From the IMG/VR virus record IMGVR_UViG_2558860274_000004, positions 1-18,981 of that record: a DNA stretch of 18,981 nt; one strand, given 5' to 3'. Source of the stretch: a virus (Duplodnaviria; Heunggongvirae; Uroviricota; Caudoviricetes). The position numbers were made by a program, and so were the translations under genes. The notes beneath the pieces are model-generated. The model was given only the letters and a program-made list of their open reading frames with translations, did no database searches and was not told the DNA's origin. This document shows positions 1 to 18,981 of this stretch, one piece after another. Within the stretch, counting starts at the first letter, position 1, and every line of letters starts with the position of its first letter.

Positions 1-1233
1 ATGACTAAAAAACCATGGGAAAGAAGACTTAAAGATTTATCGCACTTGCTCAAATGCTGCATTGATACATATTTTGACCCTGAATTATTCCGCTTGAATT
101 TGAATCAATTCCTCCAAACCGCAAGAACAGTAACATTTATTATTCAAAAAAACAAAAACCAGATTATAGGATATGACATTTGGTATAACAATAATGTTAT
201 TGAAAAATGGAAAAATGATCCATTAATGGCTTGGGCTAAAAATTCTCGCAATACGATAGAAAAACAAGGCGATTTAGAAATGTATAGCGAGGCAAAGGCT
301 ACTCTTATTTCATCTTACATTGAAGAAAATGACATTGAGTTTATTACAAATGAAAGTATGTTAAACATTGGTATAAAAAAGTTAGTCAGACTTGCACAAA
401 AGAAATTACCTTCATATTTAACTGAATCATCTATTATTAAATCAGAAAGACGATGGGTCGCTAATACGCTAAAAGATTACGAATTATTACATGCCTTAGC
501 TATAATCTATGGCAGAATGTATAACTGCTGTAACTCTCTTGGCATACAAATAAACAATCCAATGGGTGACGATGTGATTTCGCCAACATCATTCGACTCT
601 TTATTTGATGAAGCCAGGAGAATAACTTATTTAAAATTAAAAGATTACTCCATAAGCAAATTGTCATTTAGCATGATACAATATGATAATAAAATAATTC
701 CTGAAGATATTAAAGAGCGTCTAAAACTGGTAGATAAGCCTAAAAATATCACTTCGACAGAAGAGTTAGTTGACTATACAGCCAAGCTTGCAGAAACGAC
801 TTTTTTAAAGGACGGTTATCACATTCAAACATTAATTTTTTATGATAAACAATTCCATCCAATTGATTTAATCAATACAACATTTGAAGATCAAGCAGAT
901 AAATATATTTTTTGGCGTTATGCAGCTGACAGAGCCAAAATAACAAATGCCTATGGCTTCATTTGGATATCAGAGCTATGGCTCAGAAAAGCAAGCATCA
1001 ACTCCAATAAACCAATACATACAATGCCAATTATAGATGAAAGACTTCAGGTAATTGGAATTGATTCAAATAATAATCAAAAATGTATTTCATGGAAAAT
1101 AGTTAGAGAAAATGAAGAAAAAAAACCGACTTTAGAAATATTAACAGCAGACTCAAAACATGACGAAAAACCATATTTCATGCGTTCAGTCTTAAAAGCA
1201 ATTGGCGGTGATGTAAACACTATGAACAATTGA
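1..1233 (+). CDS. hypothetical protein (410 aa), AT-rich orphan, function unknown
   Basis: Long uninterrupted ORF starting at ATG at position 1 and ending with TGA at 1231-1233. Composition is visibly AT-rich (about one-third G+C in the first 120 nt by hand count), unlike the rest of the window. No motif I can assign. Convergent with the Q-like gene. Confidence 0.6.
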   Translation: MTKKPWERRLKDLSHLLKCCIDTYFDPELFRLNLNQFLQTARTVTFIIQKNKNQIIGYDIWYNNNVIEKWKNDPLMAWAKNSRNTIEKQGDLEMYSEAKATLISSYIEENDIEFITNESMLNIGIKKLVRLAQKKLPSYLTESSIIKSERRWVANTLKDYELLHALAIIYGRMYNCCNSLGIQINNPMGDDVISPTSFDSLFDEARRITYLKLKDYSISKLSFSMIQYDNKIIPEDIKERLKLVDKPKNITSTEELVDYTAKLAETTFLKDGYHIQTLIFYDKQFHPIDLINTTFEDQADKYIFWRYAADRAKITNAYGFIWISELWLRKASINSNKPIHTMPIIDERLQVIGIDSNNNQKCISWKIVRENEEKKPTLEILTADSKHDEKPYFMRSVLKAIGGDVNTMNN

Positions 1234-1312
1234 GTCATAGAACTTCCATTATTCTCCTGAAGATAATAATCGCCAAATAAACCAATACTCAGTTTTACAA
1301 TATAATAACTAA

Positions 1313-1346
1313 CCGCAGAACGTTATTTCATACAACGTTTCTGCGG
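1313..1346. terminator. inverted-repeat hairpin between convergent genes (candidate terminator)
   Basis: ccgcagaacgtt (1313-1324), 9-nt loop, aacgtttctgcgg (1334-1346): near-perfect 12-bp stem. On the minus strand it is followed by a T/A-rich stretch. Lies between the stop of the 1..1233 ORF and the stop of the Q-like ORF. Confidence 0.4.
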
Positions 1347-1361
1347 CATATCACAAAACGA

Positions 1362-1759
1362 TTACTCCATAACAGGGACAGCAGGCCACTCAATATCAGG
1401 TGCAGTTGATGTATCAACACGGTTCAGCAACACCCGATACTTCTTCCAGACTTCCAGCAACGAGGTTTCTTCCTCCGTTGCGATTTCCAGATCTGCAGCA
1501 TCCTGAAGTGGCGCGATATGCTCACTGGCTACCTGCATCAGGCTGTTTTTTGTTTCTTCCGCTTCAGGCGAGCCATGCATCCACAAATGATCATCGCGTC
1601 ATCGTCACAACATTGCGGGCGGGATTTTACTTTTGAAGGGATTAGTCCTTTAAATCCTGCAGCAATAGACGACCAGGTGACATCCTCGTGATTATTTGCC
1701 ACCCATGCCCCCCAACGTTCAAGAACCATTTGAATATCACGCATCAACTTTCTCCACAA
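1362..1759 (-). pseudogene. Q-family late antiterminator-like gene, split into two frames at a T6/A6 homopolymer
   Basis: ORF 1538..1759 (minus) encodes [24 protein letters not shown]...[16 protein letters not shown], which I recall as the N-terminus of small enterobacterial Q-like antiterminators. It stops just after a homopolymer (plus-strand tttttt at 1545-1550). ORF 1362..1586 continues in another frame. A 1-nt indel in the run would join them into about 130 aa. Confidence 0.5.
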
Positions 1760-2758: not shown

Positions 2759-3304
2759 TCAATGAACGGTATCGAGCAGCTTTAACAGCTCAGGGAATCG
2801 GGATTCGAAGAAATGCGGCTGCGTCTCGCGCGGATTTGCGGGACTGGTGATGTTCTTACCGAACATGCAGCCTTTCGCTGTCAGCGACCAGAATTTTTTG
2901 ATGTTGTTAATCGCGGTACGGCTGTATCGTTCGCGCTGCTCGACGATCCCCAGCTTCACCATCTGGTGATATGCCTGATTAGCCGTCAGGCGGATAACCG
3001 GTCCCCACTCCACCAGCATTCTTTTCACCTGTCTGTCGTCTTCCCACACACCCGCGTGGGTCAGGGCGTCAAACAGCGCCTTGTTATAGTTGTCCAGATC
3101 GCGGATCCGGTTAACTGGCTTTGAAGTACGGGTCTTCGCGTTTTTCTGTGTACGTGCTGACGGACGGCGATAAGCGCAGGGAAAGCTCATCCCATTTTTC
3201 CCGCAGCTTCGACGGGCTGAGCACGTTACGGCACCAGAACGGATCGCGGCTGACGCGGCTGTACATCTCGCAGATTTGTTTGTGAGTACGACCATCCTGC
3301 ACAC
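2759..3304 (-). CDS. RusA-family Holliday-junction resolvase-like ORF (motif clear, N-terminal boundary uncertain)
   Basis: Contains RIRDLDNYNKALFDALTHAGVWEDDRQV, which aligns with the RusA catalytic-Asp core ([28 protein letters not shown] from memory). The ORF-track N-terminus (GTG start, Arg/Ser/Ala-rich) does not look like RusA and overlaps the 3' end of the upstream O-like ORF by about 190 nt in another frame. True start may be the internal ATG near 3190, or the gene is frameshifted. Confidence 0.5.
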   Translation of the reverse strand: MCRMVVLTNKSARCTAASAAIRSGAVTCSARRSCGKNGMSFPCAYRRPSARTQKNAKTRTSKPVNRIRDLDNYNKALFDALTHAGVWEDDRQVKRMLVEWGPVIRLTANQAYHQMVKLGIVEQRERYSRTAINNIKKFWSLTAKGCMFGKNITSPANPRETQPHFFESRFPELLKLLDTVH

Positions 3305-4022
3305 ACATCAGGCGAATTTCGTTTGCCCAGGCTGTCCAGTTCGGTTCTTTGGGACGAACCACCTCGCCGTCACATTCGGCGGCCTGCTCGTACAGGGCAA
3401 TGATTTTTTTCCAGAGCCACTGTGCGCAGGTCAAATCATCCTGCGTTCCCCACTGGCGCTTTTTAGGGCTGAATACAACCGCATCAGGATGGCGAGTTAA
3501 AAAATCCTTTTCAGCCGTCTGCGTGTCCGGTTGCGAAGCGTCCGGACGAGAAGGTTTTTTATCTGACGGATCATGTTTTGATTTTACTGACGGATCCCCG
3601 CCAGATTCTGACGGGTGAAAACCCGCTTTTTTGCCAGATTTCGACGCATCAAATTTTGACGGGTCAGATTTTGATGCGTCAGATTTTGATGCGTCAGATT
3701 TTGACGGGTCAGAATCTGACAGTTGAGAAAATGCCGCTGCCTGAAGCTTCGCAACGTTAAGCTGATAAACATTCGACGCATTGCGGTTACCCTGGCGACG
3801 CGCCTTACGCGTTAACCAGCCTTCTGCTTCCAGCCGTGCGATAGCCGTTCTGACGGTGCTCATCCCCGCGCCAATCTGGCGGGCAATGGTTTCAATTGAT
3901 GGCCAGCACACACCTTCGTCATTACTGAAATCAGCCAGGCGGGCCATAATTGCCACGCTGGATAACTTCATGCCTGACGCAGCGCAACCATCCCATACAT
4001 AGCCGGTTAATTTAGTGCTCAT
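3111..4022 (-). CDS. replication initiator protein (lambda O-like role) with HTH N-terminus and internal iteron-encoded repeat
   Basis: 303-aa ORF with GAGG Shine-Dalgarno 7 nt upstream of ATG at 4022. N-terminal winged-HTH-like segment (SIETIARQIGAGMSTVRTAIARLEAEGWL). Central SKSDASKSDASKSDPSKFDASK repeat is encoded by 15-bp direct DNA repeats, the arrangement of lambdoid O genes that carry ori inside the coding sequence. Confidence 0.7.
   Translation of the reverse strand: MSTKLTGYVWDGCAASGMKLSSVAIMARLADFSNDEGVCWPSIETIARQIGAGMSTVRTAIARLEAEGWLTRKARRQGNRNASNVYQLNVAKLQAAAFSQLSDSDPSKSDASKSDASKSDPSKFDASKSGKKAGFHPSESGGDPSVKSKHDPSDKKPSRPDASQPDTQTAEKDFLTRHPDAVVFSPKKRQWGTQDDLTCAQWLWKKIIALYEQAAECDGEVVRPKEPNWTAWANEIRLMCVQDGRTHKQICEMYSRVSRDPFWCRNVLSPSKLREKWDELSLRLSPSVSTYTEKREDPYFKAS
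3580..3725. repeat. iteron array (candidate prophage origin of replication) inside the initiator gene
   Basis: At least four tandem 15-bp units (gtcagattttgatgc, gtcagattttgatgc, gtcagattttgacgg, gtcagaatctgacag) at about 3656-3722, plus degenerate copies upstream (ctgacggatc at 3582-3600). Each unit has internal dyad symmetry (tcagattttga vs tcaaaatctga). Confidence 0.6.
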
Positions 4023-4031
4023 GACCGACCT

Positions 4032-4370
4032 CTATTTCCCTGAATTTACGACGAAACTGTTCGAGCGGACTGAAGCATTCATGCTCATAACCTTCGCGGA
4101 GGTAGATAACCCGTTGTGTTTCCGGCTCCCAACGAATGACTCTGACGGGCACTCCGTAGTGATCTTTGAACCAGCGGTTAACTTGTCGCAAAGGACTGTC
4201 TCCTTCTGCCGGTTGAAATCACCCACAGCCCACTCTGCAAAGCTGTGGGTTACAATTTCCCTATCACCTGGTACATTCACTGCATAGCAATATTCCACCT
4301 TCGCTTTTCCACCCGGTACAGGAAGCGCAATCAGTTGCGAGCGACGGTAGTGTGTTGTTAAACTGTTCAT
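4032..4370 (-). CDS. hypothetical protein (112 aa)
   Basis: ATG at 4370 overlaps the TGA stop of the upstream CII-like gene (ATGA overlap, translational coupling). Stop at 4032-4034 lies 10 nt before the initiator start. No recognisable motif. Confidence 0.45.
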
Positions 4371-4924
4371 GCGTTAGTTTCTCCACAACCAGAAGCAATC
4401 GACGCCACGACGCCCGGAGCTGCACACTCGCGGGCGTCATTACTTTCTGAAATGCAAAAAATTTTGTAGACAAGTGCTGCATGCTCCTGCAGCTTCGAAA
4501 TTGAGAGATACAGCTCGTCGTTAATTGCTGTCTTCTCATGCGGTTCCACTACGCCGTCTTCGATTGCTGAACGAATCTGTTTTGAATAACTGCCGATCTG
4601 TTCAATGACTTCCAGCAGACGCTGGTTAATATCGGCGTTGTCCACATCCTCGACGTCAGGAAGAGACACAAAGACGCCATTTGCAGACTGCGCCACAGCA
4701 TCAGCAATGAAGTGAGTGCCACCAGCACGCTGTAAAACCATTGCCCATCCCAGCGGGAAAATCTGATCGCCATCTGCACGAAGGCGGTTGAATAAAGCGT
4801 TTTCTGTTACATCGAGCCAGTCAGCCGCTTCAGCGTAACCACCCGGCAACGCCGCGATAGTTTTTCTGACAGCTTTCACGTACCACTCAGGCTGTTTTTC
4901 CACTTTCCAGTGATGATTACCCAC
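4367..4924 (-). CDS. CII-like phage regulatory protein (family assignment tentative)
   Basis: 185-aa ORF directly downstream of cro-like gene in the same operon. GTG start preceded by AGGAGG 6 nt upstream. Position and size fit CII-like prophage regulators; no catalytic motif seen. Confidence 0.5.
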
Positions 4925-5177
4925 GGCTTACCTCCTGTTCCTGTGGTTTAAACCCATTCTGGTTTTGGCTAGATTGAAAACGTGCCGGATAAAGAATCTG
5001 CATTTCGCTGATTTCACCCTTAAAAAAATTGGCCAGACGTTCTGCAAGATCGATAGATGGAATTTGTTCCAGTCTTTCAATACGACTCAGCGTCGCTGGA
5101 TTGACCTGAACGCCAGCAGCAACATGCTGCAAAGTAAATCCGTGCGCCTTACGCACATTCCGTAATGGTGATTGCAT
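4917..5177 (-). CDS. Cro/XRE-type HTH transcriptional regulator (cro-like)
   Basis: 86-aa ORF divergent from the cI-like gene. GGAGG Shine-Dalgarno 4-8 nt upstream of ATG at 5175-5177. Helix-turn-helix-like segment FTLQHVAAGVQVNPATLSRIE. Confidence 0.75.
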   Translation of the reverse strand: MQSPLRNVRKAHGFTLQHVAAGVQVNPATLSRIERLEQIPSIDLAERLANFFKGEISEMQILYPARFQSSQNQNGFKPQEQEVSRG

Positions 5178-5274
5178 ATGACCTCCACATATTGCGTGAT
5201 GAGCATATTATTTCACGCAAATATTTTGCGCAAGTTGATTTGCTTAACGCGCAATAAAGAAATGTAATAAACGC
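5178..5274. promoter_or_regulatory. immunity-region divergent promoters and operators between cro-like and cI-like genes
   Basis: 97-bp intergenic region with repeated TTGCG(T/C) / (A/G)CGCAA half-sites: ttgcgtga-N13-tcacgcaa (5192-5220), cgcaaa-tat-tttgcg (5215-5229), ttgcgcaa (5226-5233), acgcgcaa (5247-5254). Candidate -10 taatat for the leftward (cro) promoter on the minus strand at 5205-5210. Candidate ttgctt/tgtaat rightward promoter giving a near-leaderless cI transcript. Confidence 0.55.
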
Positions 5275-5967
5275 ATGAACATAGGAAACCGAGTCAGACA
5301 ACTTCGCCAGGCGAAGAACATGAAAATCGCCGATCTCGCTGAAGCAATAGGAGTGGATGCGGCGAATATCTCACGCCTGGAAACAGGTAAGCAGAAACAA
5401 TTCACTGAACAAGCCCTGAGTAATATTGCCAAGAGCTTAGGTGTTGATATTGCTGATCTCTTTACCTCAGACTTCAAAAGTAATACTGTATGTAAAAACA
5501 GTATTAGTGAGGATGTTGCGCAGGTGAAGGATGTATTCCGTATTGAAATGCTGGATGTCAGTGCCAGTGCGGGAAATGGCCTTATCCAGGGCGGTGATGT
5601 CATTGATGTGATTCATGCCATTGAATACAGAACTGATAATGCTGTATCGATGTTTGGCGGACGGCCAGCCAATCACATTAAAGTTATCAACGTTCGTGGG
5701 GACAGTATGTGTCCAGCCATTGAGCCAGGAGATCTCATCTTCGTTGATGTCAGTATCAATCAGTTTGATGGAGATGGTATCTATGTATTTGGTTTTGATG
5801 ATAAAATTTATGTCAAACGACTGCAAATGATACCTGACAAACTACTGGTGATTTCTGATAACCAGATTTACCGTGAATGGGGAATTACCAGCGAAAATGA
5901 ACACCGGTTTATGGTCTTTGGAAAGGTCTTAATCAGCCAGTCACAAACCCTTAAGCGACACAATTAA
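5275..5967 (+). CDS. cI-like repressor, LexA/S24 family (N-terminal XRE HTH plus C-terminal autocleaving peptidase domain)
   Basis: 230-aa ORF. HTH segment MKIADLAEAIGVDAANISRLETG. Ala-Gly candidate cleavage site in SASAGNG (about residues 99-100). Ser in VRGDSMCP and Lys in YVKRL spaced 37 residues apart as in the LexA Ser/Lys dyad. Confidence 0.9.
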   Translation: MNIGNRVRQLRQAKNMKIADLAEAIGVDAANISRLETGKQKQFTEQALSNIAKSLGVDIADLFTSDFKSNTVCKNSISEDVAQVKDVFRIEMLDVSASAGNGLIQGGDVIDVIHAIEYRTDNAVSMFGGRPANHIKVINVRGDSMCPAIEPGDLIFVDVSINQFDGDGIYVFGFDDKIYVKRLQMIPDKLLVISDNQIYREWGITSENEHRFMVFGKVLISQSQTLKRHN

Positions 5968-5987
5968 CCCTTACCTCCTCATCAATT

Positions 5988-6009
5988 AGCCACCCAAAGG
6001 TGGCTTTTC
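5988..6009 (+). terminator. intrinsic terminator downstream of cI-like gene
   Basis: agccacc (5988-5994), caaa loop, ggtggct (5999-6005), followed by tttcatt. Confidence 0.5.
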
Positions 6010-6485
6010 ATTACCCTTTAAATTGCATATCTCGCAACAAAAGCACTTGCATAATGCGCAACTTCATTTTATCTTTCTTTCCAGACAAACAAACAAGGTA
6101 CTAACAAAATTTGGTTGTAACACGGCGTATGGCACATGCGTCGTTAGCGGTCTGGGGACGTTAAAGGGGACAATCCACTCCTTGCTCGGGCAAACAAACC
6201 AGGTAGCCGGAATGTGCAAGTCAATGATGATGCTGATAAGACGCCTAACCAGCGTGGCGATCCGGTTTGACGCCTGGGAAGAGACCAGGGTGCAACGATG
6301 AGGGCATTTATAGAGCCGCGACAAAGTGTGGTGCCGTAACTGGCTAAGTGCTCTCAGCGTTGTGGTAATCCGCGAAATGGCGCGGCGGTAAGTATGGCGG
6401 GGTTACTCTTTCCCCGTTGAGGACACCGGATTGTCAGGTTGACCATACGCCTGAGTGACAACCCCACCACAACAGCCACTGCTTT

Positions 6486-6532
6486 GGCGGTACCAGTTTG
6501 TACACTTGCTTCCTGCTGGTACCGCTCTTTTT
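6486..6532 (+). terminator. strong hairpin plus T-tract inside the long leader upstream of the early-left genes
   Basis: ggcggtaccag (6486-6496), about 19-nt loop, ctggtaccgc (6516-6525), followed by tcttttt (6526-6532). Confidence 0.5.
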
Positions 6533-6669
6533 ACAAAACAGAGAAGAGCATCACCGGACGACGGGCTCATAACCCAATCCATCCGGGCGGCTGCCACCGC
6601 AGGTGTTCTTCTCTGTTTTGTGGAGAAACCAACCGACCTTGCAGGGTCGATATGATGAGGAGCAGCAAA

Positions 6670-7032
6670 ATGGCTAGCGAACGCAGTACTGATGTGCAGG
6701 CATTTATCGGGGAGCTGGACGGCGGCGTATTTGAAACCAAAATCGGCGCAGTTCTCAGTGAAGTCGCTTCCGGTGTGATGAACACGAAAACCAAAGGTAA
6801 GGTCTCACTCAACCTGGAAATCGAACCATTTGATGAGAACCGTGTGAAAATCAAACACAAACTCTCATATGTTCGCCCGACTAACCGCGGGAAAATTTCC
6901 GAAGAAGACACCACCGAAACGCCGATGTATGTCAATCGCGGTGGTCGCCTGACTATTCTGCAGGAAGACCAGGGACAATTACTGACTCTTGCCGGTGAAC
7001 CTGACGGAAAACTACGCGCAGCAGGTCATTAA
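6670..7032 (+). CDS. small early prophage protein (about 121 aa), hypothetical
   Basis: ORF track gives 6439..7032, but the plausible start is ATG at 6670 with GAGGAG about 8 nt upstream. The upstream extension overlaps the terminator hairpin and has no ribosome-binding site. Size resembles a YfdP-like protein (recollection only). Confidence 0.5.
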   Translation: MASERSTDVQAFIGELDGGVFETKIGAVLSEVASGVMNTKTKGKVSLNLEIEPFDENRVKIKHKLSYVRPTNRGKISEEDTTETPMYVNRGGRLTILQEDQGQLLTLAGEPDGKLRAAGH

Positions 7033-7097
7033 TATCGTTCTTAATTAACTGATTATTTATCTCATCACTGAATATCTTTATATAGTGAGGACTTATT

Positions 7098-7922
7098 ATG
7101 TCTCAGAACTTAGACGCAACCGCAATTAATCAAATCCATGCCCTTATTTCTGCTCAGGGTGTTAATGAAATTATCAGTAATATTGGTGCCGATGCTGTGG
7201 CATTGCCTGAGAATTTCCGCATTCATGATCTGGAAAAATTTAATTTAAATCGCTTCCGTTTCCGTGGTGCGCTTTCCACTGCCAGCATCGATGACTTTAC
7301 CCGTTATTCTAAAGATCTTGCAGATGAAGGCACCCGCTGCTTTATCGATGCTGATAATATGCGTGCCGTCAGTGTACTTAACCTGGGTACTATTGATGAA
7401 CCAGGTCACGCAGATAACACCGCCACTCTCAAACTGAAAAAGACAGCACCGTTCTCTGCCCTGTTGTCTGTTAACGGCGAGCGTAACTCCCAGAAGTCAC
7501 TGGCAGAATGGATTGAAGACTGGGCCGACTACCTTGTGGGCTTTGATGCTAATGGTGACGCTATTCAGGCAACAAAAGCGGCTGCGGCAGTCCGTAAAAT
7601 CACGATTGAAGCAAACCAGACCGCTGATTTTGAAGATAATGACTTCAGCGGCAAACGCTCCCTGATGGAGTCTGTCGAAGCGAAGACCAAAGACATTATG
7701 CCAGTGGCATTTGAATTTAAATGCGTTCCGTTTGAAGGTCTGAAAGAACGTCCGTTTAAATTACGCCTCAGCATTATCACTGGCGATCGTCCTGTACTGG
7801 TTCTGCGCATTATTCAGCTGGAGGCGGTGCAGGAAGAAATGGCTAACGAATTTCGTGATCTGCTTGTTGAGAAATTCAAGGACAGCAAAGTAGAAACCTT
7901 TATTGGTACTTTCACCGCCTGA
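7098..7922 (+). CDS. DUF2303-like prophage protein (YfdQ-like, 274 aa)
   Basis: ATG at 7098 with GAGGA 8 nt upstream. Length and gene order (followed by an HD-domain gene and DUF551 genes) match my recollection of the yfdPQRST block of E. coli prophages. Identity not verified. Confidence 0.6.
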
Positions 7923-8049
7923 TTTCATTACTGCAAATGCCCCTGCGGGGGCATTTATGGAAACGTAATTTACTCAATAATCGCCGGATGGTGAGGGATT
8001 CTTTTTACCAGAATTCAGCGCGGTGCAGCGCATATACGTGGAGAACAAA

Positions 8050-8586
8050 ATGTCATTTATCAAAACTTTTTCCGGGAAGCATTTTTATTATGACAGGATA
8101 AATAAAGACGACATCGATATTAACGATATCGCGGTTTCCCTTTCAAATATCTGTCGCTTTGCCGGTCATCTTTCGCACTTCTACAGCGTCGCCCAACATG
8201 CGGTTCTTTGCAGCCAGCTGGTGCCGCAGGAATTTGCTTTTGAAGCGTTAATGCATGATGCAACAGAAGCGTATTGCCAGGACATTCCCGCACCACTGAA
8301 ACGCCTTCTTCCTGACTATAAACGGATGGAAGAAAAAATAGACGCCGTAATCCGTGAGAAATACGGGTTACCCCCGGTTATGAGTACACCCGTGAAATAT
8401 GCCGATCTCATCATGCTGGCAACCGAACGCCGCGATCTCGGGCTTGATGATGGCTCTTTCTGGCCTGTACTGGAAGGCATCCCGGCAACAGAGATGTTCA
8501 ACGTGATTCCACTGGCACCGGGCCATGCCTACGGGATGTTTATGGAACGTTTTAACGATTTATCGGAGTTACGCAAATGCGCATGA
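8050..8586 (+). CDS. HD-domain phosphohydrolase-like protein (YfdR-like, 178 aa)
   Basis: Probable start at ATG 8050 (GGAGA 6 nt upstream); ORF track begins at 8023. Candidate HD-type metal-binding residues in ...SHFYSVAQHAV...MHDATEAY... Stop overlaps the next gene start. Confidence 0.7.
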   Translation: MSFIKTFSGKHFYYDRINKDDIDINDIAVSLSNICRFAGHLSHFYSVAQHAVLCSQLVPQEFAFEALMHDATEAYCQDIPAPLKRLLPDYKRMEEKIDAVIREKYGLPPVMSTPVKYADLIMLATERRDLGLDDGSFWPVLEGIPATEMFNVIPLAPGHAYGMFMERFNDLSELRKCA

Positions 8587-8939
8587 ATGTTTTCGAAATG
8601 GAAGGGTTTCTTCGCGGGAAATGTGTACCGCGAGATCTGAAAGTGAACGAAACAAATGCTGAGTACCTGGTACGTAAATTCGACGCGCTTGAAGCTAAAT
8701 GTGCGGCACTGGAAAACAAAATAATACCAGTGTCAACTGAACTGCCACCAGCAAATGAAAGTGTTCTGTTATTTGATGCTAATGGAGAAGGCTGGCTGAT
8801 TGGCTGGCGTTCTCTCTGGTACACCTGGGGACAAAAAGAAACCGGAGAATGGCAGTGGACATTTCAGGTCGGGGACCTTGAAAACTTCAATATCACTCAC
8901 TGGGCAGTAATGCCCAAAGCGCCGGAGGCTGGAGCATAA
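8577..8939 (+). CDS. DUF551-type small prophage protein (YfdS-like, 120 aa)
   Basis: Start overlaps the preceding stop (ATGCGCATGA). C-terminal ITHWAVMPKAPE resembles the THWMPLPxPP signature of DUF551. Confidence 0.6.
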   Translation: MRMNVFEMEGFLRGKCVPRDLKVNETNAEYLVRKFDALEAKCAALENKIIPVSTELPPANESVLLFDANGEGWLIGWRSLWYTWGQKETGEWQWTFQVGDLENFNITHWAVMPKAPEAGA

Positions 8940-9451
8940 TGACCACATTTACCAATAAAGAACTGATTAAAGAAATCAAAGAACGAATCAGCAGCCTAGA
9001 GGTTCGAGACGATATTGAGCGCCGTGCTTATGAAATTGCTCTGGCATCGCTGGAAGAGGAGCCGGTGGCATGGCTGCATTCAGACAATGGCTTAGGTATT
9101 CCGGCAATAACCAGGAGCAAAAACATTGCTGACAGTTGGTTATCAATGGGCTGGTATGTTCAGCCGCTATATATAGCCAAGCCAGTACTGGTGGTGCCAG
9201 ATGCTCGTCCGTCTTTAAATAATGGCATAGTCGGTTTTGATGAAGGCTGGAACGCCTGCCGCGCTACCATGCTTCATGGTGCCAAACCTGTAAGCCAGAC
9301 TTACAAGTTGAACAAGCTGTCGGGCAACTCTCCGGTAACTCAGGATGGTTGGATAAGCTGTAGTGAGCGAATGCCGAACGATAAACAGTATGTTTGGTGT
9401 TGGGGTAAGTCTTACGGCTGGACTGAGTGCGATACCTTCGAAGGGTATTAG
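8939..9451 (+). pseudogene. 5' portion (170 codons) of an Ead/DUF551-type gene interrupted by IS66-family insertion
   Basis: ORF ends at a TAG created at the insertion junction (ta from host plus g from the IS end). The reading frame resumes after the IS at 11992 and ends with VTHWMPLPEPPQEVK, the DUF551 signature. Confidence 0.7.
9443..9450. repeat. 8-bp target-site duplication (gggtatta), left copy, IS66-family element
   Basis: Identical to 11983-11990, immediately flanking the IS ends. Confidence 0.85.
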
Positions 9452-9535
9452 TAAGCGTAAACTGACCGCCGTATGTAGCCATCAGACGAGAATTGGTAAC
9501 TTAGACGCCCATCTGATATAGACGGACATCTAAGT

Positions 9536-9961
9536 ATGGAATTACAGGACTGGCGAAAAGAACCTCGTAAAAACTATTCGAATGAATTCAAACTTCGTAT
9601 GGTGGAACTGGCATCACAACCTGGAGCTTGTGTTGCACAGATTGCACGTGAAAATGGCGTCAATGATAATGTTATTTTCAAATGGCTCAGGCTCTGGCAG
9701 AACGAAGGGCGTGTTTCGCGGCGTCTTCCGGTAACGACCTCTTCTGACACTGGCGTTGAATTATTACCTGTAGAAATAACGCCGGATGAGCAGAAAGAAC
9801 CTGTGGCGGCCATTGCGCCGTCTTTATCCACTTCCACTCAGACCAGAGTCAGTGCCAGTTCCTGCAAGGTGGAATTCCGTCACGGCAACATGACGCTGGA
9901 AAATCCATCGCCAGAGCTGCTCACAGTGTTGATCCGTGAACTGACCGGGAGGGGAAGATGA
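9536..9961 (+). CDS. tnpA: IS66-family accessory protein TnpA (orf1)
   Basis: 141-aa ORF with HTH-like N-terminus (NYSNEFKLRMVELASQPGACVAQIARENGV), first gene in the IS, overlapping tnpB by 4 nt. Confidence 0.8.
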   Translation: MELQDWRKEPRKNYSNEFKLRMVELASQPGACVAQIARENGVNDNVIFKWLRLWQNEGRVSRRLPVTTSSDTGVELLPVEITPDEQKEPVAAIAPSLSTSTQTRVSASSCKVEFRHGNMTLENPSPELLTVLIRELTGRGR

Positions 9962-10308
9962 TCTCACTCCCATCAGGTACCCGTATCTGGCTCGTTGCCG
10001 GCGTTACCGATATGCGTAAATCCTTCAACGGACTGGGAGAACAGGTACAACATGTGCTGAATGATAATCCCTTCTCCGGTCACCTGTTTATCTTCCGTGG
10101 CCGACGGGGTGACACCGTCAAAATTCTTTGGGCTGATGCTGATGGTCTGTGCCTGTTCACCAAACGCCTGGAGGAAGGCCAGTTTATCTGGCCTGCGGTA
10201 CGTGACGGCAAGGTATCCATTACCCGCTCGCAACTGGCAATGCTCCTCGATAAGCTGGACTGGCGTCAGCCAAAAACATCCAGCCGTAACTCACTGACAA
10301 TGTTGTAA
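9958..10308 (+). CDS. tnpB: IS66-family TnpB (orf2)
   Basis: 116-aa ORF (LPSGTRIWLVAGVTDMRKSFNGL...) in the characteristic middle position of IS66 elements. Confidence 0.8.
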   Translation: MISLPSGTRIWLVAGVTDMRKSFNGLGEQVQHVLNDNPFSGHLFIFRGRRGDTVKILWADADGLCLFTKRLEEGQFIWPAVRDGKVSITRSQLAMLLDKLDWRQPKTSSRNSLTML

Positions 10309-10338
10309 AAAACTCCTGACCGCATTATAAAAACGGTC

Positions 10339-11952
10339 ATGAGTCAGAAATACCTCATTCGCATCGCAGAGCTGGAAAGGTTGCTCTCTGAGCAGGCTGA
10401 AGCCCTCCGTCAGAAAGACCAGCAACTGAGTCTGGTTGAAGAGACGGAAGCCTTCCTGCGCTCTGCACTGACACGTGCCGAAGAAAAGATCGAAGAAGAT
10501 GAACGGGAAATAGAACATCTGCGGGCTCAGATAGAAAAACTGCGCCGGATGCTGTTCGGTACCCGTTCTGAAAAACTGCGTCGTGAAGTTGAACTGGCTG
10601 AGGCTCTGCTGAAACAACGTGAACAGGACAGCGATCGTTACAGTGGGCGGGAAGACGATCCTCAGGTTCCCCGCCAGTTGCGACAGTCGCGCCATCGTCG
10701 TCCGTTACCGGCACACCTTCCCCGTGAAATACACCGCCTGGAGCCAGAAGAAAGCTGTTGCCCGGAGTGTGGCGGTGAGCTGGATTATCTGGGGGAAGTC
10801 AGCGCTGAACAGCTGGAACTGGTGAGCAGTGCCCTGAAAGTGATCCGCACAGAACGGGTAAAAAAAGCCTGTACAAAATGTGACTGTATTGTTGAAGCAC
10901 CGGCGCCGTCCCGCCCGATAGAGCGTGGTATCGCGGGCCCCGGATTACTTGCCCGCGTGTTAACGGGAAAATACTGCGAACATCTGCCACTGTATCGTCA
11001 GAGTGAAATCTTTGCCCGCCAGGGTGTCGAACTGAGCCGGGCCTTACTCTCCAACTGGGTTGACGCGTGCTGCCAGTTAATGACACCGGTGAATGATGCC
11101 CTGTACCGTTATGTAATGAACACCCGCAAGGTTCACACTGATGACACACCGGTAAAGGTACTGGCACCGGGTCAGAAAAAGGCGAAAACAGGGCGTATCT
11201 GGACGTATGTCCGGGATGATCGCAATGTGGGTTCGTCATCTCCTCCAGCGGTCTGGTTCGCGTACTCGCCGAACCGGCAGGGGAAACACCCGGAGCAACA
11301 CCTCCGCCCCTTCCGGGGTATCCTGCAGGCGGATGCGTTCACAGGTTACGACAGGTTGTTCAGTGCAGGACGTGAAGGTGGTGCACTGACAGAAGTTGCG
11401 TGCTGGGCCCATGCCCGGCGAAAAATCCACGATGTATACATCAGCAGCAAAAGTGCGACGGCAGAAGAAGCACTGAAGCGAATCAGTGAACTGTACGCCA
11501 TCGAGGATGAAATACGGGGATTACCGGAGTCAGAGCGTCTTGCCGTCAGGCAGCAGCGAAGCAAAGTGTTACTGACGTCGCTGCATGAATGGATGGTGGA
11601 GAAGAATGGTACGCTGTCGAAAAAATCCAGACTGGGCGAAGCGTTCAGCTATGTACTGAATCAGTGGGATGCCCTCTGTTATTACAGTGATGACGGTCTG
11701 GCGGAGGCGGATAATAATGCTGCGGAAAGAGCGCTTCGTGCAGTCTGTCTCGGAAAGAAAAACTTTATGTTCTTTGGCAGCGATCACGGCGGCGAGCGTG
11801 GAGCACTGTTGTACGGGCTGATCGGCACCTGCCGTCTGAACGGTATCGATCCGGAAGCGTATCTGCGCCATATCCTGAGCGTACTGCCGGAATGGCCTTC
11901 CAACCGAGTTGATGAACTCCTGCCATGGAACGTAGTACTCACCAATAAATAA
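10339..11952 (+). CDS. tnpC: IS66-family transposase TnpC (orf3)
   Basis: 537-aa ORF with N-terminal coiled-coil/leucine-zipper region, CxxC...CxxC zinc-finger-like motif (CCPECGGEL...CTKCDC) and a C-terminal catalytic region, as in IS66 transposases. Confidence 0.85.
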   Translation: MSQKYLIRIAELERLLSEQAEALRQKDQQLSLVEETEAFLRSALTRAEEKIEEDEREIEHLRAQIEKLRRMLFGTRSEKLRREVELAEALLKQREQDSDRYSGREDDPQVPRQLRQSRHRRPLPAHLPREIHRLEPEESCCPECGGELDYLGEVSAEQLELVSSALKVIRTERVKKACTKCDCIVEAPAPSRPIERGIAGPGLLARVLTGKYCEHLPLYRQSEIFARQGVELSRALLSNWVDACCQLMTPVNDALYRYVMNTRKVHTDDTPVKVLAPGQKKAKTGRIWTYVRDDRNVGSSSPPAVWFAYSPNRQGKHPEQHLRPFRGILQADAFTGYDRLFSAGREGGALTEVACWAHARRKIHDVYISSKSATAEEALKRISELYAIEDEIRGLPESERLAVRQQRSKVLLTSLHEWMVEKNGTLSKKSRLGEAFSYVLNQWDALCYYSDDGLAEADNNAAERALRAVCLGKKNFMFFGSDHGGERGALLYGLIGTCRLNGIDPEAYLRHILSVLPEWPSNRVDELLPWNVVLTNK

Positions 11953-11982
11953 GCGTCAATACGGTGCTCCGTTGACGCTTAC

Positions 11983-11990
11983 GGGTATTA
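11983..11990. repeat. 8-bp target-site duplication (gggtatta), right copy, IS66-family element
   Basis: Identical to 9443-9450. Confidence 0.85.
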
Positions 11991-11991
11991 C

Positions 11992-12099
11992 GATTGGTCG
12001 AGAAACAAATGGTGGGCAGTTACTGACGATGGGGAAGAACCGGCATCGAAAGTAACCCACTGGATGCCGCTACCGGAGCCACCGCAGGAGGTGAAGTAA
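11992..12099 (+). pseudogene. 3' portion of the IS66-interrupted DUF551-type gene
   Basis: In frame with 8939..9450 once the IS and one TSD copy are removed: ...EGY-Y-DWSRNKWWAVTDDGEEPASKVTHWMPLPEPPQEVK, stop TAA at 12097-12099. Confidence 0.7.
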
Positions 12100-12293
12100 T
12101 GAACAACTTAATGACAACTAAACAAGTCGCCGACTTCTGTGGCGTTTCAGTATCGACCGTTCTTCGCTGGAACAGCGTAAACAGGAGAACTGGCCAGAAA
12201 TACAGGCCTGACTTTCCAGATCCTGATATTAAATCCTGCCCAAATAAATGGGCATCACGCAAGATATACAGGTTTGCTGGAGTTATTGAGTGA
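12099..12293 (+). CDS. small HTH DNA-binding protein, AlpA/excisionase-like (64 aa)
   Basis: ATG overlaps the preceding stop (TAATG). TTKQVADFCGVSVSTVLRW resembles the HTH of AlpA/Xis-type prophage regulators. Assignment from motif only. Confidence 0.5.
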   Translation: MNNLMTTKQVADFCGVSVSTVLRWNSVNRRTGQKYRPDFPDPDIKSCPNKWASRKIYRFAGVIE

Positions 12294-12359
12294 TGGGTAT
12301 TAGCTCATATCAGAACTAATACCCATCAATGACACAGAGCCAACTACCCACCCTGTGTC
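12291..12359. terminator. two hairpins between convergent AlpA-like and SIR2 genes
   Basis: tgatgggtattag (12291-12303), 12-nt loop, ctaatacccatca (12316-12328): perfect 13-bp stem. Second dyad gacacag (12331-12337) / ctgtgtc (12353-12359). No clear U-tract, so possibly a recombination or protein-binding dyad rather than a terminator. Confidence 0.4.
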
Positions 12360-12495
12360 AGGGGCTAACTTTTAACACCATAATTCACCGCTAGATAAAA
12401 ACTGTATTGCATTGCACGAGCGGCGCAGCATTATCAGTTAGAGTGTCTTTACCTTGTTAGGCTCCACAGTTCGCACTGTCCAACGCCTGTCACTT

Positions 12496-15400
12496 TCACA
12501 CGCTGCGCCTTCGAGAATATTCATTTAATCGCTGATAACGAACATCTTGCTCCAGTTGTGGAGCAGCTTGAACAATTTGAAGCAAGCATTGCCCCAACTC
12601 TCGAGGCCCCCAGTGTTGTTCGGCAATCACGGCATTCAGCAGGGATAGAGCGTCCGCAGGATATCGGCTGCAAATATCTGATTCTAGCAAAAGGCGAACG
12701 TCGTAGCTAAGGTGTTCGAGCGGTTGCAGCCAGTCCTGCACCACTGCCAAAGCCGCCGGAAATTCACCTCGGGCAGCAATCACCATACGAGTCAACGATT
12801 CGGATATGCGTGGGGTGGCCAAGTTGCGGGACTTTGGCCAAACCTGTTGCCAAAATGGCTGGACACGATTTTTCCAATACTCCTCGCGCTGATCGCCCGC
12901 ACCTTCAAGTGCCTGGTATAACGCCTGCGCGGCTACCTCCAGACCTTCTTGTGGAAGAGCACTAATTGCCGTTCGGAACTCCTCCACGGTATATCCCTCG
13001 GTAGGGCCCAGAGCTGCATAAGTCAGGAAAATAGCGAATTGCTGCCGGTGCTCGCCAAGATCAGAATAGTGATTGGCGCTCTCCAAAAAATCTGACTTGA
13101 AAGCTATCAGCAACGGTTCATACAGGCGTGGCGACCAGAGGAAGCCTTCCCACACAGCTTTTGCTTCGACGGGATTACTCCAAGCAAACAAGGGCAATAG
13201 ATACTGTTCGGTCCAAGGTCGATCTACGCGAAAAAATGCGATCAGCCGCGACCCCAGCAACACCCGACCATGGCGGAATAGCTCTATCTGTACATTACAC
13301 AATTTGGTGAAAAGTGTTTTCAATTCAACAGGAAGCAAATCATTGTCATTCGGGTTCTGTTTGAACCATAGGGTGATCAGTGATTGCGTGACATGCCCAA
13401 TGGGATGATTGATCGCCGTAGAAACAGGATCATAGGTCTCAATTCCGTTTCGAATGGTGCTAGACTCTGGGCTTGTTTCTATCATCAGAACCCGACGACA
13501 AAGGGCCAGTAGAATCTCCTCGTGGCAGAGGATGGTCTTCGAAGCCTCCTCCATCCACCAAGTGACAGCGTGGGAAATCTCCTGAAGTACTGCGTCAGGC
13601 ATGTCAAGCACCAACGGTGCGGCGTACCGCCACGAACGCATAATCATCCCTGGTTCAGCCCAAGTCTGCAGAGCTTCACGCCACCGACCAACAGGCCACA
13701 CATCATCTTGTGATAGTTTACGTAACGCATACAGACTGTGAAAAAAGCGCGTACGGCAAACATCACTCCAAGTGTCCTCATAGAAAGGCAGTCTTTCTGG
13801 CATAGGCTTTGCGAGCCATTGCACTAATTCCTGCCACTTACGGGGCGCAATGTCGACATCTATACTCTCCTCGAAGCCTGGATCACCGGTTCCGCTCATC
13901 CAGTGAGAGAATTCATCACGCTCGTTGGTTGCCAGTTGCCATTTTGGGTATGCTGTGGATATTTCCGTCAAACGTGTAGCCGCAGACTCTCCCAAAACAA
14001 GGCCCGCTCCCCTGAGCTTCGCTAGACACAACCAGACGGAATGAGCCACCAAATAATGCCACCTGTCTGCTTCCAAATTATCCTCGTACATCTCGCGCGG
14101 AGGCCCTGCCAAGATAGCAGTTTCCAGACGCTCTTGTGCAATTCCTGTCAGATGTCGTCCCTGCAAAACAAACAGTCTGAATACCTCTCGCCGAGTATCC
14201 GTGGCCCACAACCACCATGAACCGTCCTCTAACAACCAATTAACCCACCGCTCAGGTGGTATGCAGTTGTCTTGGCTTGCGGCAAACAGTGCCAGACGTT
14301 TGAAGGTGGGATATGGCAACTCAAACCAATTCTGAGCAATGCGCGAGGCCTGATCGCTGTCTTTGGCTCGAACGGCTAACCATGAATCCCGAAGTAATTC
14401 AATCAGGCTCACCCAATCGCGGAACCCCCGGTTCTGCCAGTGCGGAGTGATGGACGGCAAATCCCAATGCGAGCGGTCGTGACGATCGTCGGACTCTCCC
14501 AACTCCCGCAACAAGTCCAGTGCATCACGCAACAACTGCTGAAAATCTTCCAACAGGTATGGCAAGGACGATTTCCATGACTCGTCAGCAAGGTCGAACA
14601 GGGTTGAACGTACGTAATCAGCAGTCAGCACCAGCTCCCAATCCACCAATTGCTTGATTCGCAAGGGTTCATCAGTGCTGCTCGAATCGTCTTCACTATA
14701 GCGAAACGGCCGCCTCAACATAACCTTGGGAGAAAGCAACTCGCGTAACTCCAAGCGCAATGTAGTCGTCAAGCCTTCATTCTTTAAGCGGTTTTGCCAA
14801 CGATACAAATCCAGGTTCTGCAATGGCGATTTCACACGACCACTAAGCAGAAGCCGCCATAAAGTAGACATAGGTGGACCAGGAATAGCCAGGGGGGAAT
14901 GCAAGAGAATTTCATCTAACTCAGAAGTCTTACGCTCCCGCATCAGTGCTGCTAAGCGATCTAGTTCGCTCTCAATCAGAAACATCCAACGGTCGTGTAT
15001 TTGTCCGCCGCGTTCAGCAATCCATATGATCAACCTAGGGTCGCCCAGATAACGAACTAGCCAACGGGCTATATGGGACATTACGTCATCCCATTTGCTA
15101 GCACTGACACATCCAGAAACCAGCGACATCTGCGGGGCCAGCTCATAGGGCGCAGGACGCTGAACCAGACTGAATCGGAGTTTCGGGTCAATTTCGACAT
15201 GCGGAGATACACAAAAGCGTGGCAGATCGCTGTATTTAAATCGTTCGTCCGAGAAAGCTTTCAATAACCAATCCAGCGGCGGTGCAGGATTGAGTTCCGC
15301 AAAGCGTTTTGCTGGTAAACCTGATTTATCTGACAAGGCCCACAACATCCGACCAACGAAATCGTCCTGACGAGTGCTGTCCTGCGGGCGGGCCAGAGCA

Positions 15401-16323
15401 TGTTTGACGACTATAGCCTCTTTGCCCTGTATACCATCTCGATAAGTATCTGCCCAAGCGTGCAACGTTTGATGCAGCACTGAATGATCAGTGGAGCCCG
15501 CCGGTACGGTGTAAAGGATAGGAGTGACCCCTTTGGCCTCCCACTCGATGGCTTTCCGGTGCTCCTGCCCCGGCTCACACTCCCCCAGTGCCCATACTTG
15601 TGGTGTGACTTCACCGAGCCTCCGATCTGCTGCAAGCGCATCCATCATGTAGCGCAGTACCGGGTCGTTGATGCTGTAGCCAACGAAGCAGACCACATAG
15701 TTACGAAATAACTCACTCACAAAGCGAGCTGCCCAACGCTCAGTGAGATAAGCCAAGCCAAAGTCACCGCTGGTAACAACCAGACGATTCAGGGCAGTAT
15801 CATCCGCCTTTTCCGGTAACAGCCCATGCAGGTATACAAGTCCATCCCAGCGGCTGTTTTTTGGAATTGGCAGCATCGGCGCTACATAGGCCTGAAAAGC
15901 CTGGCCTGTACGTTTAGCTGCCACATGAAAGAGACGGTCAAAGTTGGTAGTGACCAATCGAAGGGCACCCTCGCGGCTACGGGCTAAACGTAACAGCGCC
16001 GCCTGAGTATCAATAGCGCCCCTACGACGGAGCTTTGGCTTAAGGGCTTTTTCCAACGCGCGTCGGACGGCTATACGCTGCCCTGGTAAGCGCCGTTCCA
16101 GCAAATCTAATGTGCCGTCAAATTGCCCACGCTCGAAAACCTCACGCTCAATTTCTGAAAGTGTTGTTCCGTTCCTCTGGTAAATTAGTTCTACCAACCC
16201 TTTGAAACCAGGTAAACCAGCAGGGTAGGAAATGCCTGCTCCACAGAAGAACACAACGCGCCCTTCCTCGTGCGCCTGCAAAAGCTCATCAGGAATATCA
16301 GGGCCGTTGGTAATGAATTGCAT
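12496..16323 (-). CDS. large SIR2-domain protein (1275 aa): N-terminal SIR2-like NAD+-binding domain plus unassigned C-terminal helical region; candidate single-gene anti-phage defence
   Basis: AGGAGG Shine-Dalgarno 7-8 nt upstream of ATG at 16323. N-terminal motifs VVFFCGAGISYPAGLPGF (GAGIS NAD-binding loop), LVTTNFDRLFH (TQNID-like with catalytic Asn) and VYLHGLL (catalytic His-Gly). No Walker A (GxxxxGK[ST]) found by eye. C-terminal 1000 aa is Leu/Trp/Arg-rich and looks helical-repeat-like. Confidence 0.85.
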   Translation of the reverse strand: MQFITNGPDIPDELLQAHEEGRVVFFCGAGISYPAGLPGFKGLVELIYQRNGTTLSEIEREVFERGQFDGTLDLLERRLPGQRIAVRRALEKALKPKLRRRGAIDTQAALLRLARSREGALRLVTTNFDRLFHVAAKRTGQAFQAYVAPMLPIPKNSRWDGLVYLHGLLPEKADDTALNRLVVTSGDFGLAYLTERWAARFVSELFRNYVVCFVGYSINDPVLRYMMDALAADRRLGEVTPQVWALGECEPGQEHRKAIEWEAKGVTPILYTVPAGSTDHSVLHQTLHAWADTYRDGIQGKEAIVVKHALARPQDSTRQDDFVGRMLWALSDKSGLPAKRFAELNPAPPLDWLLKAFSDERFKYSDLPRFCVSPHVEIDPKLRFSLVQRPAPYELAPQMSLVSGCVSASKWDDVMSHIARWLVRYLGDPRLIIWIAERGGQIHDRWMFLIESELDRLAALMRERKTSELDEILLHSPLAIPGPPMSTLWRLLLSGRVKSPLQNLDLYRWQNRLKNEGLTTTLRLELRELLSPKVMLRRPFRYSEDDSSSTDEPLRIKQLVDWELVLTADYVRSTLFDLADESWKSSLPYLLEDFQQLLRDALDLLRELGESDDRHDRSHWDLPSITPHWQNRGFRDWVSLIELLRDSWLAVRAKDSDQASRIAQNWFELPYPTFKRLALFAASQDNCIPPERWVNWLLEDGSWWLWATDTRREVFRLFVLQGRHLTGIAQERLETAILAGPPREMYEDNLEADRWHYLVAHSVWLCLAKLRGAGLVLGESAATRLTEISTAYPKWQLATNERDEFSHWMSGTGDPGFEESIDVDIAPRKWQELVQWLAKPMPERLPFYEDTWSDVCRTRFFHSLYALRKLSQDDVWPVGRWREALQTWAEPGMIMRSWRYAAPLVLDMPDAVLQEISHAVTWWMEEASKTILCHEEILLALCRRVLMIETSPESSTIRNGIETYDPVSTAINHPIGHVTQSLITLWFKQNPNDNDLLPVELKTLFTKLCNVQIELFRHGRVLLGSRLIAFFRVDRPWTEQYLLPLFAWSNPVEAKAVWEGFLWSPRLYEPLLIAFKSDFLESANHYSDLGEHRQQFAIFLTYAALGPTEGYTVEEFRTAISALPQEGLEVAAQALYQALEGAGDQREEYWKNRVQPFWQQVWPKSRNLATPRISESLTRMVIAARGEFPAALAVVQDWLQPLEHLSYDVRLLLESDICSRYPADALSLLNAVIAEQHWGPRELGQCLLQIVQAAPQLEQDVRYQRLNEYSRRRSV

Positions 16324-16505
16324 TCCTTTTCCTCCTATCCAATGTGCACGTTCATTCGAGTAAATGAAGGCAAGGGGTTACATCTTATTATACCGACCGT
16401 GCAAATCCGGCTTCCTAGCAAGCTACTTTACTTGCCAACTCATAATGTCCGAACTCCGAACAAAGCGGACTGCTAGATTTGATTGCGTTCTAGCTACGCA
16501 AAATA

Positions 16506-16608
16506 TCATTTCGAGCCTGAACGAGTACAAGTAACAATCGATTCAACTCTCTCCCACCATGCCTGGTAGGCTTTACGCTGTTCTTCTAGATAATCACTCT
16601 TGTCATAA
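16506..16608 (-). pseudogene. int: displaced 3' end of the integrase gene (encodes the C-terminal 34 residues)
   Basis: Removing the IS3-family element and one copy of its TAA duplication restores the integrase frame: ...LPGVWQVY-DKSDYLEEQRKAYQAWWERVESIVTCTRSGSK, stop TGA at 16506-16508. This is a typical P4-type integrase C-terminal tail. Confidence 0.75.
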
Positions 16609-16616
16609 TGTAGTGG

Positions 16617-17785
<1,169 letters not shown>

Positions 17786-17841
17786 TGGAGCACCTGTGTT
17801 GTTCTGAGGTGAGCATATCACCTCTGTTCAGGTGGCCAAAT

Positions 17842-18981
17842 TCAGTGTGCCACTACATAAACTTGCCATACACCTGGCAGTTTATGACCGAGCATTATTT
17901 CAGCAATATGAGGCGCAGTAAGATCAGAAAAGTTTGTTCGTGCTGTTCGTCTCAAATCATGAAGAGACCAATGAGGAAATTGATACCCCAAACGCCGCCA
18001 TGCGTACTGCATTAAATTGTAAGGCAGCGACTGCAATGATGTCCGACCAACTGGTTCCCTGCTTCCTTCCTTAGTAAAAAGCATATCGGAACCGTTGTTC
18101 ATAGAGATAACGTATTTTATAAGCTCTTCAACCGGTTCAATAATGGGCCGCTTTAGCGGTTCGCCTGTTATATCCCCTGTCTTATGTCGTTCTGGTGGTA
18201 CAGTCCATATTTTATTAATGAAATCAAAATCGTCCACCTTGGCAGTAATTAGCTCTGAACTACGGCAACCAAAATGCAGCAATAGTTTAATGAAGGCCCG
18301 GTATTTAGGAACCATTCGAGAACCATCGATCGCAGCATAAAGGATTTTAATTTCATCATGTGTCAGAAACCGTTTCTTCTGACCTTTACGGATATCCATA
18401 TCTTTACCCGTGATATCCGACAGCGGGCGAGTTTCAATGAGCTTTCTCTTATACGCCCAGACATGGGCCTGCTTTGCGTTAATTAGCAATCGGTCTGCTA
18501 TTGCTGGAGTCTTAGTGCTAAGAGGCTCCAGGACTTCTAACCAATCATGCAATGTAGCTGCATCGTGAGGGATATTCCCGATTTTAGAGAACAGGTGCAG
18601 CTCAAACGAGCGGAGTATCTGTTCAGAACCTTTTTTATTTTTTACACAATATGCTTCATACCAAGCACGGATCACAGATTCTACCGTCATGGCTTCAGTA
18701 GCTTTACGTTTTTCTGCCAGCTTGACCAATCGTGGATTGCGGTTTGACTCGAGTTCACCACGAAGACGGATAACTTCTTCTCTGGCCTCTTTTAGTCCAG
18801 TTGCCGGGTAAGTTCCGATATCAAGACGCTCACCTTTCCCCGCCCACTGATAACGATATTGGAACACTACGCGACCTTTCGGTGATACTCTAACAGACAG
18901 ACCATCACGATCGGATTTAACCAAAACCTTATCACGTTCCTTTCCAACGACTGAACGCAACCACGCATCAGACAGCGCCAT
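17842..18981 (-). CDS. int: tyrosine integrase, P4-like; C-terminal tail replaced by IS-derived codons after insertion
   Basis: ATG at the window edge (18979-18981). N-terminus MALSDAWLRSVVGKERDKVLVKSDRDGLSVRVSPKGRVVFQYRYQWAGKGERL is arm-binding-like. Catalytic region ...HDLRRTARTNF...LGHKLPGVWQVY. After the Tyr codon the frame runs into the IS end (VVAH-stop at 17842-17844). Native continuation lies at 16506-16608. Confidence 0.85.
   Translation of the reverse strand: MALSDAWLRSVVGKERDKVLVKSDRDGLSVRVSPKGRVVFQYRYQWAGKGERLDIGTYPATGLKEAREEVIRLRGELESNRNPRLVKLAEKRKATEAMTVESVIRAWYEAYCVKNKKGSEQILRSFELHLFSKIGNIPHDAATLHDWLEVLEPLSTKTPAIADRLLINAKQAHVWAYKRKLIETRPLSDITGKDMDIRKGQKKRFLTHDEIKILYAAIDGSRMVPKYRAFIKLLLHFGCRSSELITAKVDDFDFINKIWTVPPERHKTGDITGEPLKRPIIEPVEELIKYVISMNNGSDMLFTKEGSREPVGRTSLQSLPYNLMQYAWRRLGYQFPHWSLHDLRRTARTNFSDLTAPHIAEIMLGHKLPGVWQVYVVAH

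Follow-up and report, generated by a model that had tools for sequence, protein, structure and literature searches.

A complete ISEc23 element interrupts a DUF551 gene in a defective lambdoid prophage of Escherichia albertii KF1

Insertion into the DUF551 gene

We analyzed a stretch of 18,981 nucleotides (IMG/VR record IMGVR_UViG_2558860274_000004; hereafter, the window), which was 100% identical over all 18,981 bases to CP007025.1, the chromosome of Escherichia albertii KF1 (PMC3907721). A gene encoding a 206-aa DUF551 protein, the penultimate gene of the early-left operon in a defective lambdoid prophage, was almost certainly interrupted at codon 171 by transposition of a complete insertion sequence (IS), ISEc23 of the IS66 family. 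A first-pass annotation of the window had proposed an IS66-family insertion with imperfect inverted repeats starting GTAAGCG and a perfect 8-bp target duplication, in a DUF551-type gene whose frame continues across the element; all of these points were borne out, and nothing contradicting the insertion itself was found.

The decisive evidence for the insertion is the empty site in E. coli strain 19451123 (record L003), the closest relative. Window positions 3665–9450 corresponded to L003 6813–12598, and window positions 11983–16608 corresponded to L003 12591–17216. As these two ranges overlap by 8 bp in L003, the relative holds a single GGGTATTA with nothing between, that is, an empty site. 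A 600-bp reconstruction of the junction, from which the IS and one duplicate had been omitted, aligned as one piece (99.8%) in many of the 404 E. coli genomes covering at least 80% of the query. The E. coli relatives were contiguous over the empty site at 99.8–100% identity, and the feature annotated at their empty junction was a "DUF551 domain-containing protein". The junction reads GAAGGGTATTAGTAAGCG when occupied and GAAGGGTATTACGATTGG when empty.

The target-site duplication was observed directly as GGGTATTA on both sides of the element, the two copies being identical at every position. The chance of the same 8-mer at two set positions is 4^-8 (~1.5e-5), and a chance origin is irrelevant here because relatives carry the empty site.

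The interrupted gene could also be rebuilt directly. Joining positions 8939–9450 to 11991–12099 (9451–11990 deleted) yielded an in-frame 621-bp open reading frame (ORF) for 206 aa, ending in ...KVTHWMPLPEPPQEVK and the stop codon. The rebuilt protein matched the Pfam DUF551 profile (PF04448) in full, from position 1 to 68 of 68, with 64.9 bits (cut-off of 22). It agreed in every residue with the intact 206-aa ORF of enterotoxigenic E. coli H10407 and differed by one residue from the ORF of strain 19451123. The insertion thus splits the DUF551 domain, as the truncated product retains only the beginning of the profile; the 5' fragment is closed by a TAG stop codon, and the IS supplies the final G of this codon as its first base.

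In RefSeq, the uninterrupted 621-bp ORF is itself divided into two "partial" pseudogene features in H10407 (L002 9289–9909) and in strain 19451123 (L003 12087–12707). This division is an annotation artefact, as the ORF still translates as one intact 206-aa protein.

The gene lies at the end of a yfdP-yfdQ-yfdR-yfdS-like early operon that is syntenic with the yfdQ-yfdR-yfdS-yfdT cluster of the CPS-53 prophage in E. coli K-12, which inhibits replication initiation when overexpressed (PMC4776307). The window differs from CPS-53 in its last gene, which is the disrupted gene for the 206-aa DUF551 protein.

Anatomy and identity of the element

The boundaries of the element, which is 2532 bp long, were determined by direct reading and by script, and the features of the window are listed in Table 1. 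Both terminal inverted repeats open with GTAAGCGT, including the GTAAGCG start, and agree at 20 of 24 positions. The element has a G+C content of 53%, compared to 47% for the sequence on its left and 50% for that on its right.

Table 1. Features of the window around the ISEc23 insertion and in the int-proximal part of the prophage
Feature	Position	Strand	Remarks
DUF551 gene, 5' fragment	8939–9451	+	Truncated 170-aa product; Pfam DUF551 profile positions 1–27 of 68 only
Target-site duplication, left copy	9443–9450		GGGTATTA; 8 bp; single copy in E. coli empty site
ISEc23 (IS66 family), complete	9451–11982	+	2531/2532 bases shared with 8 sampled E. coli copies, same ends
IRL, left terminal inverted repeat	9451–9474	+	GTAAGCGTAAACTGACCGCCGTAT; matches IRR at 20/24 positions
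tnpA, helix-turn-helix accessory protein	9536–9961	+	141 aa; Pfam HTH_Tnp_1, E = 5e-12; NCBIfam IS66 TnpA models
tnpB	9958–10308	+	116 aa; Pfam TnpB_IS66, 125 bits; NCBIfam IS66_TnpB, 121 bits (cut-off 50)
tnpC, DDE transposase	10339–11952	+	537 aa; Pfam DDE_Tnp_IS66, 328 bits; NCBIfam transpos_IS66, 452 bits (cut-off 180)
IRR, right terminal inverted repeat	11959–11982	-	GTAAGCGTCAACGGAGCACCGTAT (minus-strand reading); 24 bp
Target-site duplication, right copy	11983–11990		GGGTATTA; 8 bp; perfect duplicate of left copy
DUF551 gene, 3' fragment	11991–12099	+	Last 36 codons and stop; no longer in frame from the gene's start
Predicted excisionase gene	12099–12293	+	64 aa; phrog_1553, E = 7.7e-36, residues 1–64 vs. 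profile 1–63 of 65
dsr1, defence-associated sirtuin Dsr1	12496–16323	-	Intact, 1275 aa; NCBIfam Dsr1, 2059 bits (cut-off 1400); SIR2_2 domain
IS3-family element	16609–17857		1249 bp; ends TGTAGTGG...CCACTACA; TAA duplicated at 16606–16608 and 17858–17860
int, tyrosine integrase, truncated	17842–18981	-	IS3-family element inside 3' end

IS66-family elements are marked by inverted repeats of 20–30 bp starting with GTAAGCG and by 8-bp direct repeats (PMC11946415), the 8-bp duplication being also known for IS66 itself (PMC6778807), and they carry three ORFs including a DDE transposase (PMC12888890). The window element showed all of these marks: GTAAGCG inverted repeats of 24 bp, an 8-bp duplication on both sides, of which the empty site has a single copy, and intact tnpA, tnpB, and tnpC genes on the plus strand, with the ATG of tnpB overlapping the stop codon of tnpA (ATGA). 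TnpB and TnpC scored above the curated cut-offs. TnpC carried leucine-zipper (LZ_Tnp_IS66), zinc-finger (zf-IS66), and IS66-type DDE (DDE_Tnp_IS66, PF03050) domains, followed by DDE_Tnp_IS66_C (further identifiers PF13005, PF13007, and PF13817), and its NCBIfam transpos_IS66 model was NF033517. Classic IS66 and IS679 share the tnpA-tnpB-tnpC order with the ATGA overlap, the GTAAGCG-type repeats, and the 8-bp duplication (PMC11946415, PMC12888890, PMC6778807); the window element, which has no passenger gene, is no different in kind.

Copies with at least 99% identity were found by megablast in 2100 records from 5,426 complete E. coli genomes, and the best listed E. coli matches were annotated by NCBI PGAP as "IS66-like element ISEc23 family transposase". 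Eight copies retrieved from E. coli had identical ends, and each had its own 8-bp duplication, at four distinct insertion sites. The sole difference between the window copy and these eight was a synonymous C instead of T at window position 9886 in tnpA, and all three proteins are therefore identical to those of the sampled copies (TnpA, WP_000422741.1; TnpB, WP_000624722.1; TnpC, WP_000080197.1). Three more copies with 99.7–99.8% identity, located in other prophages, had the same ends and 8-bp duplications at three further sites, bringing the copies with an observed duplication to 11 in addition to that in the window. From this full-length near-identity, together with the family marks, the element is identified as a complete ISEc23, named after the PGAP annotation of the near-identical copies. 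It agrees with the ISEc23 of E. coli chromosomes and plasmids in length, ends, proteins, and duplication, and it differs in the one synonymous base, in its E. albertii host, and in its insertion site.

The insertion would have proceeded in the usual manner of such elements. The DDE transposase TnpC, with TnpA and TnpB as accessory proteins, would have linked both ends of the IS to target strands that had been cleaved with an 8-bp stagger, and gap repair would then have duplicated GGGTATTA. This chemistry is likely by analogy with known DDE and IS66-family elements. As a consequence of the insertion, the DUF551 domain is interrupted after 27 of the 68 profile positions, the gene stops at the TAG completed by the IS, and the excisionase gene, which normally comes next with overlapping stop and start codons, has been pushed 2.5 kb further from the operon promoter.

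The eight target 8-mers, that of the window included, had no common motif (GGGTATTA, GCATTTTC, GCTTGAGC, AAAGGACT, GGTTTTCA, CAACAGGG, GGGTTCAA, and ACAATAAC). DUF551 genes were considered as an insertion hotspot and rejected, since two E. coli copies of ISEc23 located near DUF551 lie in other genes, with duplications CAACAGGG and GGGTTCAA. ISEc23 was also present in the early regions of three E. coli lambdoid prophages (L001 3001–5532, L020 2210–4741, and L021 1502–4033). The L001 copy lies between the repressor gene and a yfdR-like gene, and those of L020 and L021 lie upstream of xis/int. These copies occupy differing sites, and all are oriented as the flanking early genes. The presence of ISEc23 in early prophage regions may reflect only the tolerance of accessory genes for insertions.

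Downstream excisionase gene

The ORF following the DUF551 gene had been labeled as AlpA-like in the first-pass annotation. We replaced this label with that of a prophage excisionase, to which the ORF is assigned by its full-length match to phrog_1553 and by its fitting position beside int and dsr1. No Pfam or NCBIfam match to the AlpA family was listed for this ORF; its HTH_17 match (22.6 bits) was below the cut-off of 27, and its NCBIfam Xis/excisionase matches were all below their cut-offs. The excisionase gene has its own AGGAGG ribosome-binding site, and its start codon overlaps the stop codon of the DUF551 gene at the last base of the latter (TAATG).

The excisionase stop codon is overlapped by an inverted repeat at 12291–12328, whose 16-nt arms (TGATGGGTATTAGCTC and GAACTAATACCCATCA) are 94% complementary and lie 6 nt apart, and a second hairpin, which is terminator-like, was observed at 12351–12363. 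The 8-mer GGGTATTA recurs at 12295 and 12317 within the hairpin ending the excisionase gene, which was judged a probable coincidence.

The element had also been suggested to separate the early genes from the following genes and thereby to alter their transcription. ISEc23 now lies between the operon promoter and the excisionase gene, with which the early-left operon ends, and has increased the distance between them by 2.5 kb. A polar effect is plausible on the excisionase gene, which is the next gene on the same strand, given the overlap of its start with the DUF551 stop. The suggestion fails for dsr1 and int, which are on the opposite strand and not downstream of the IS. A consensus scan for promoters and terminators over positions 8000–12600 gave counts no higher than those of shuffled sequence, supporting neither an outward promoter nor an IS terminator.

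Prophage context

The island carrying the insertion is ~20 kb long and located between prfC/dinI and yjjG. It comprises, in order, an Ea47-like gene, DUF968, RusA, and a replication-type helix-turn-helix protein; cII-like, cro-like, and cI-like (S24 peptidase) regulators; yfdP, yfdQ, yfdR, and yfdS-like genes; and the DUF551 and excisionase genes, with dsr1 and int on the opposite strand. No Q, lysis, or structural genes were present in the island; compared with the E. coli relative, everything from Q onward is missing. The island is a defective lambdoid prophage.

Further losses were identified relative to strain 19451123. At window positions 2992–3113 (L003 3799–6290), the KF1 prophage lacks ~0.65 kb with a KilA-N gene and ~1.7 kb with the genes for a LexA-family regulator, an N6-adenine methyltransferase, and PerC/yfdN, and what remains there is a 181-aa ORF that matches RusA only in part. 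The left end of the window (1–1697), with the Ea47-like 410-aa ORF (phrog_19262), is unrelated to strain 19451123.

At the other end, dsr1 sits between the excisionase gene and int, and the enclosing region (window 11983–16608) has 100% DNA identity to strain 19451123. The int gene was truncated independently by an IS3-family insertion, which is absent from the E. coli relatives; many E. coli genomes hold IS3-family copies that are 99.8–100% identical to this element. The integrase has 407 aa in the relatives; in KF1, it ends with ...LGHKLPGVWQVY followed by VVAH and the stop codon, right after the probable catalytic Tyr, so that the last 32 residues are lost. The truncated integrase is probably impaired.

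A functional consequence of the two insertions can be proposed tentatively, namely that ISEc23 uncoupled the excisionase from the early promoter and, together with the truncation of int, locked a Dsr1-carrying remnant in the chromosome. The overlap with the DUF551 stop, which indicates that the excisionase gene is normally co-transcribed, is in favor of this proposal, as are the phrog_1553 identity of the excisionase, the shortened int, and the combination of an intact dsr1 with missing Q, lysis, and structural genes. However, the IS genes run parallel to the operon and no convincing terminator was found at the right end of the IS, so that read-through may express the excisionase; the remnant is unable to form phage anyway; and nothing points to selection over neutral decay. 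We therefore regard such locking as possible and rather doubtful.

Age and spread of the occupied site

The insertion had been described in the first-pass annotation as clean and apparently recent, with an IS that may be active. The element is indeed clean and intact, and ISEc23 may be capable of transposition, to judge indirectly from the intact ORFs and from the many near-identical copies at differing sites in E. coli. The suggested recency does not follow from these features, as neither a perfect duplication nor the integrity of the ORFs gives the age of an insertion.

None of the 5,426 complete E. coli genomes searched had the occupied site, and the left junction had no match in species-representative genomes. 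Among public collections, the truncated 170-aa product, which is made by this insertion only, was found on nine contigs. The same left junction into the IS was read in six short contigs of other samples, five of which were from ENA metagenomes (of gut and other origins, chicken gut among them) and one from an NCBI assembly. In two contigs (L005 and L008), the upstream yfdR/yfdS region was ~2% different from KF1, with all mismatches located upstream of position 8921, and the 512-bp gene fragment and the junction were identical in every contig. The same occupied allele in six other contigs indicates an inherited, shared allele and not a private new event. The simplest reading of these sequences is a single ancestral insertion, after which the allele spread and the prophage underwent ordinary mosaic recombination upstream.

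A very recent event private to the isolate, with ISEc23 now transposing in KF1, would agree with the perfect duplication, the three intact ORFs, the single synonymous difference from the common ISEc23, and the absence of the occupied site from complete E. coli genomes. It is unlikely in view of the shared truncated product and left junction, and of the two contigs whose divergent upstream sequence adjoins an identical fragment and junction, which points to an allele that has spread and recombined since the insertion.

An assembly artefact, or recombination between two IS copies in place of a simple insertion, is exceedingly improbable: the KF1 assembly was built from short reads, and its gaps were filled in silico (PMC3907721), but an assembler would not make a target duplication, the left junction recurs in independent assemblies, and two copies that had recombined would be flanked by unlike 8-mers, whereas the 8-mers are identical here and the flanks are contiguous in the empty site.

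Several points limit the account of a complete ISEc23 given above. The name ISEc23 was taken from PGAP annotation and not from the ISfinder reference. Given the short-read, gap-filled assembly, several copies may have been merged into a consensus inside the IS. The right junction had no match in JGI metagenomes, leaving that side with no independent support. The promoter and terminator scan gave no signal above chance, either for or against polarity.

Discussion

The genome is published and the IS catalogued, and the event described here, an insertion of the standard type, is ordinary and familiar. It adds no new biology on IS66-family elements and matters little beyond annotation. The presence of several IS (ISEc23 and the IS3-family element) in a single defective prophage, with int among the genes hit, is the same as in the IS-mediated prophage decay of Shigella, E. 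coli O157, and related lineages, from which the window is not distinguished by any feature.

It is conceivable, and in our judgment quite improbable, that both insertions (ISEc23 before the excisionase gene and the IS3-family element in int) were retained because they immobilise a remnant with the useful anti-phage cargo Dsr1. If this were true, the allele shared with several gut samples would mark an E. albertii lineage that has been successful and whose defence island is now fixed in place.

For E. albertii KF1, the insertion explains the pseudogene status of the DUF551 gene, and the occupied junction could serve as a marker for typing E. albertii lineages. Together with the second IS in int, ISEc23 marks the Dsr1-carrying prophage as a remnant that is in decay and can probably no longer move.

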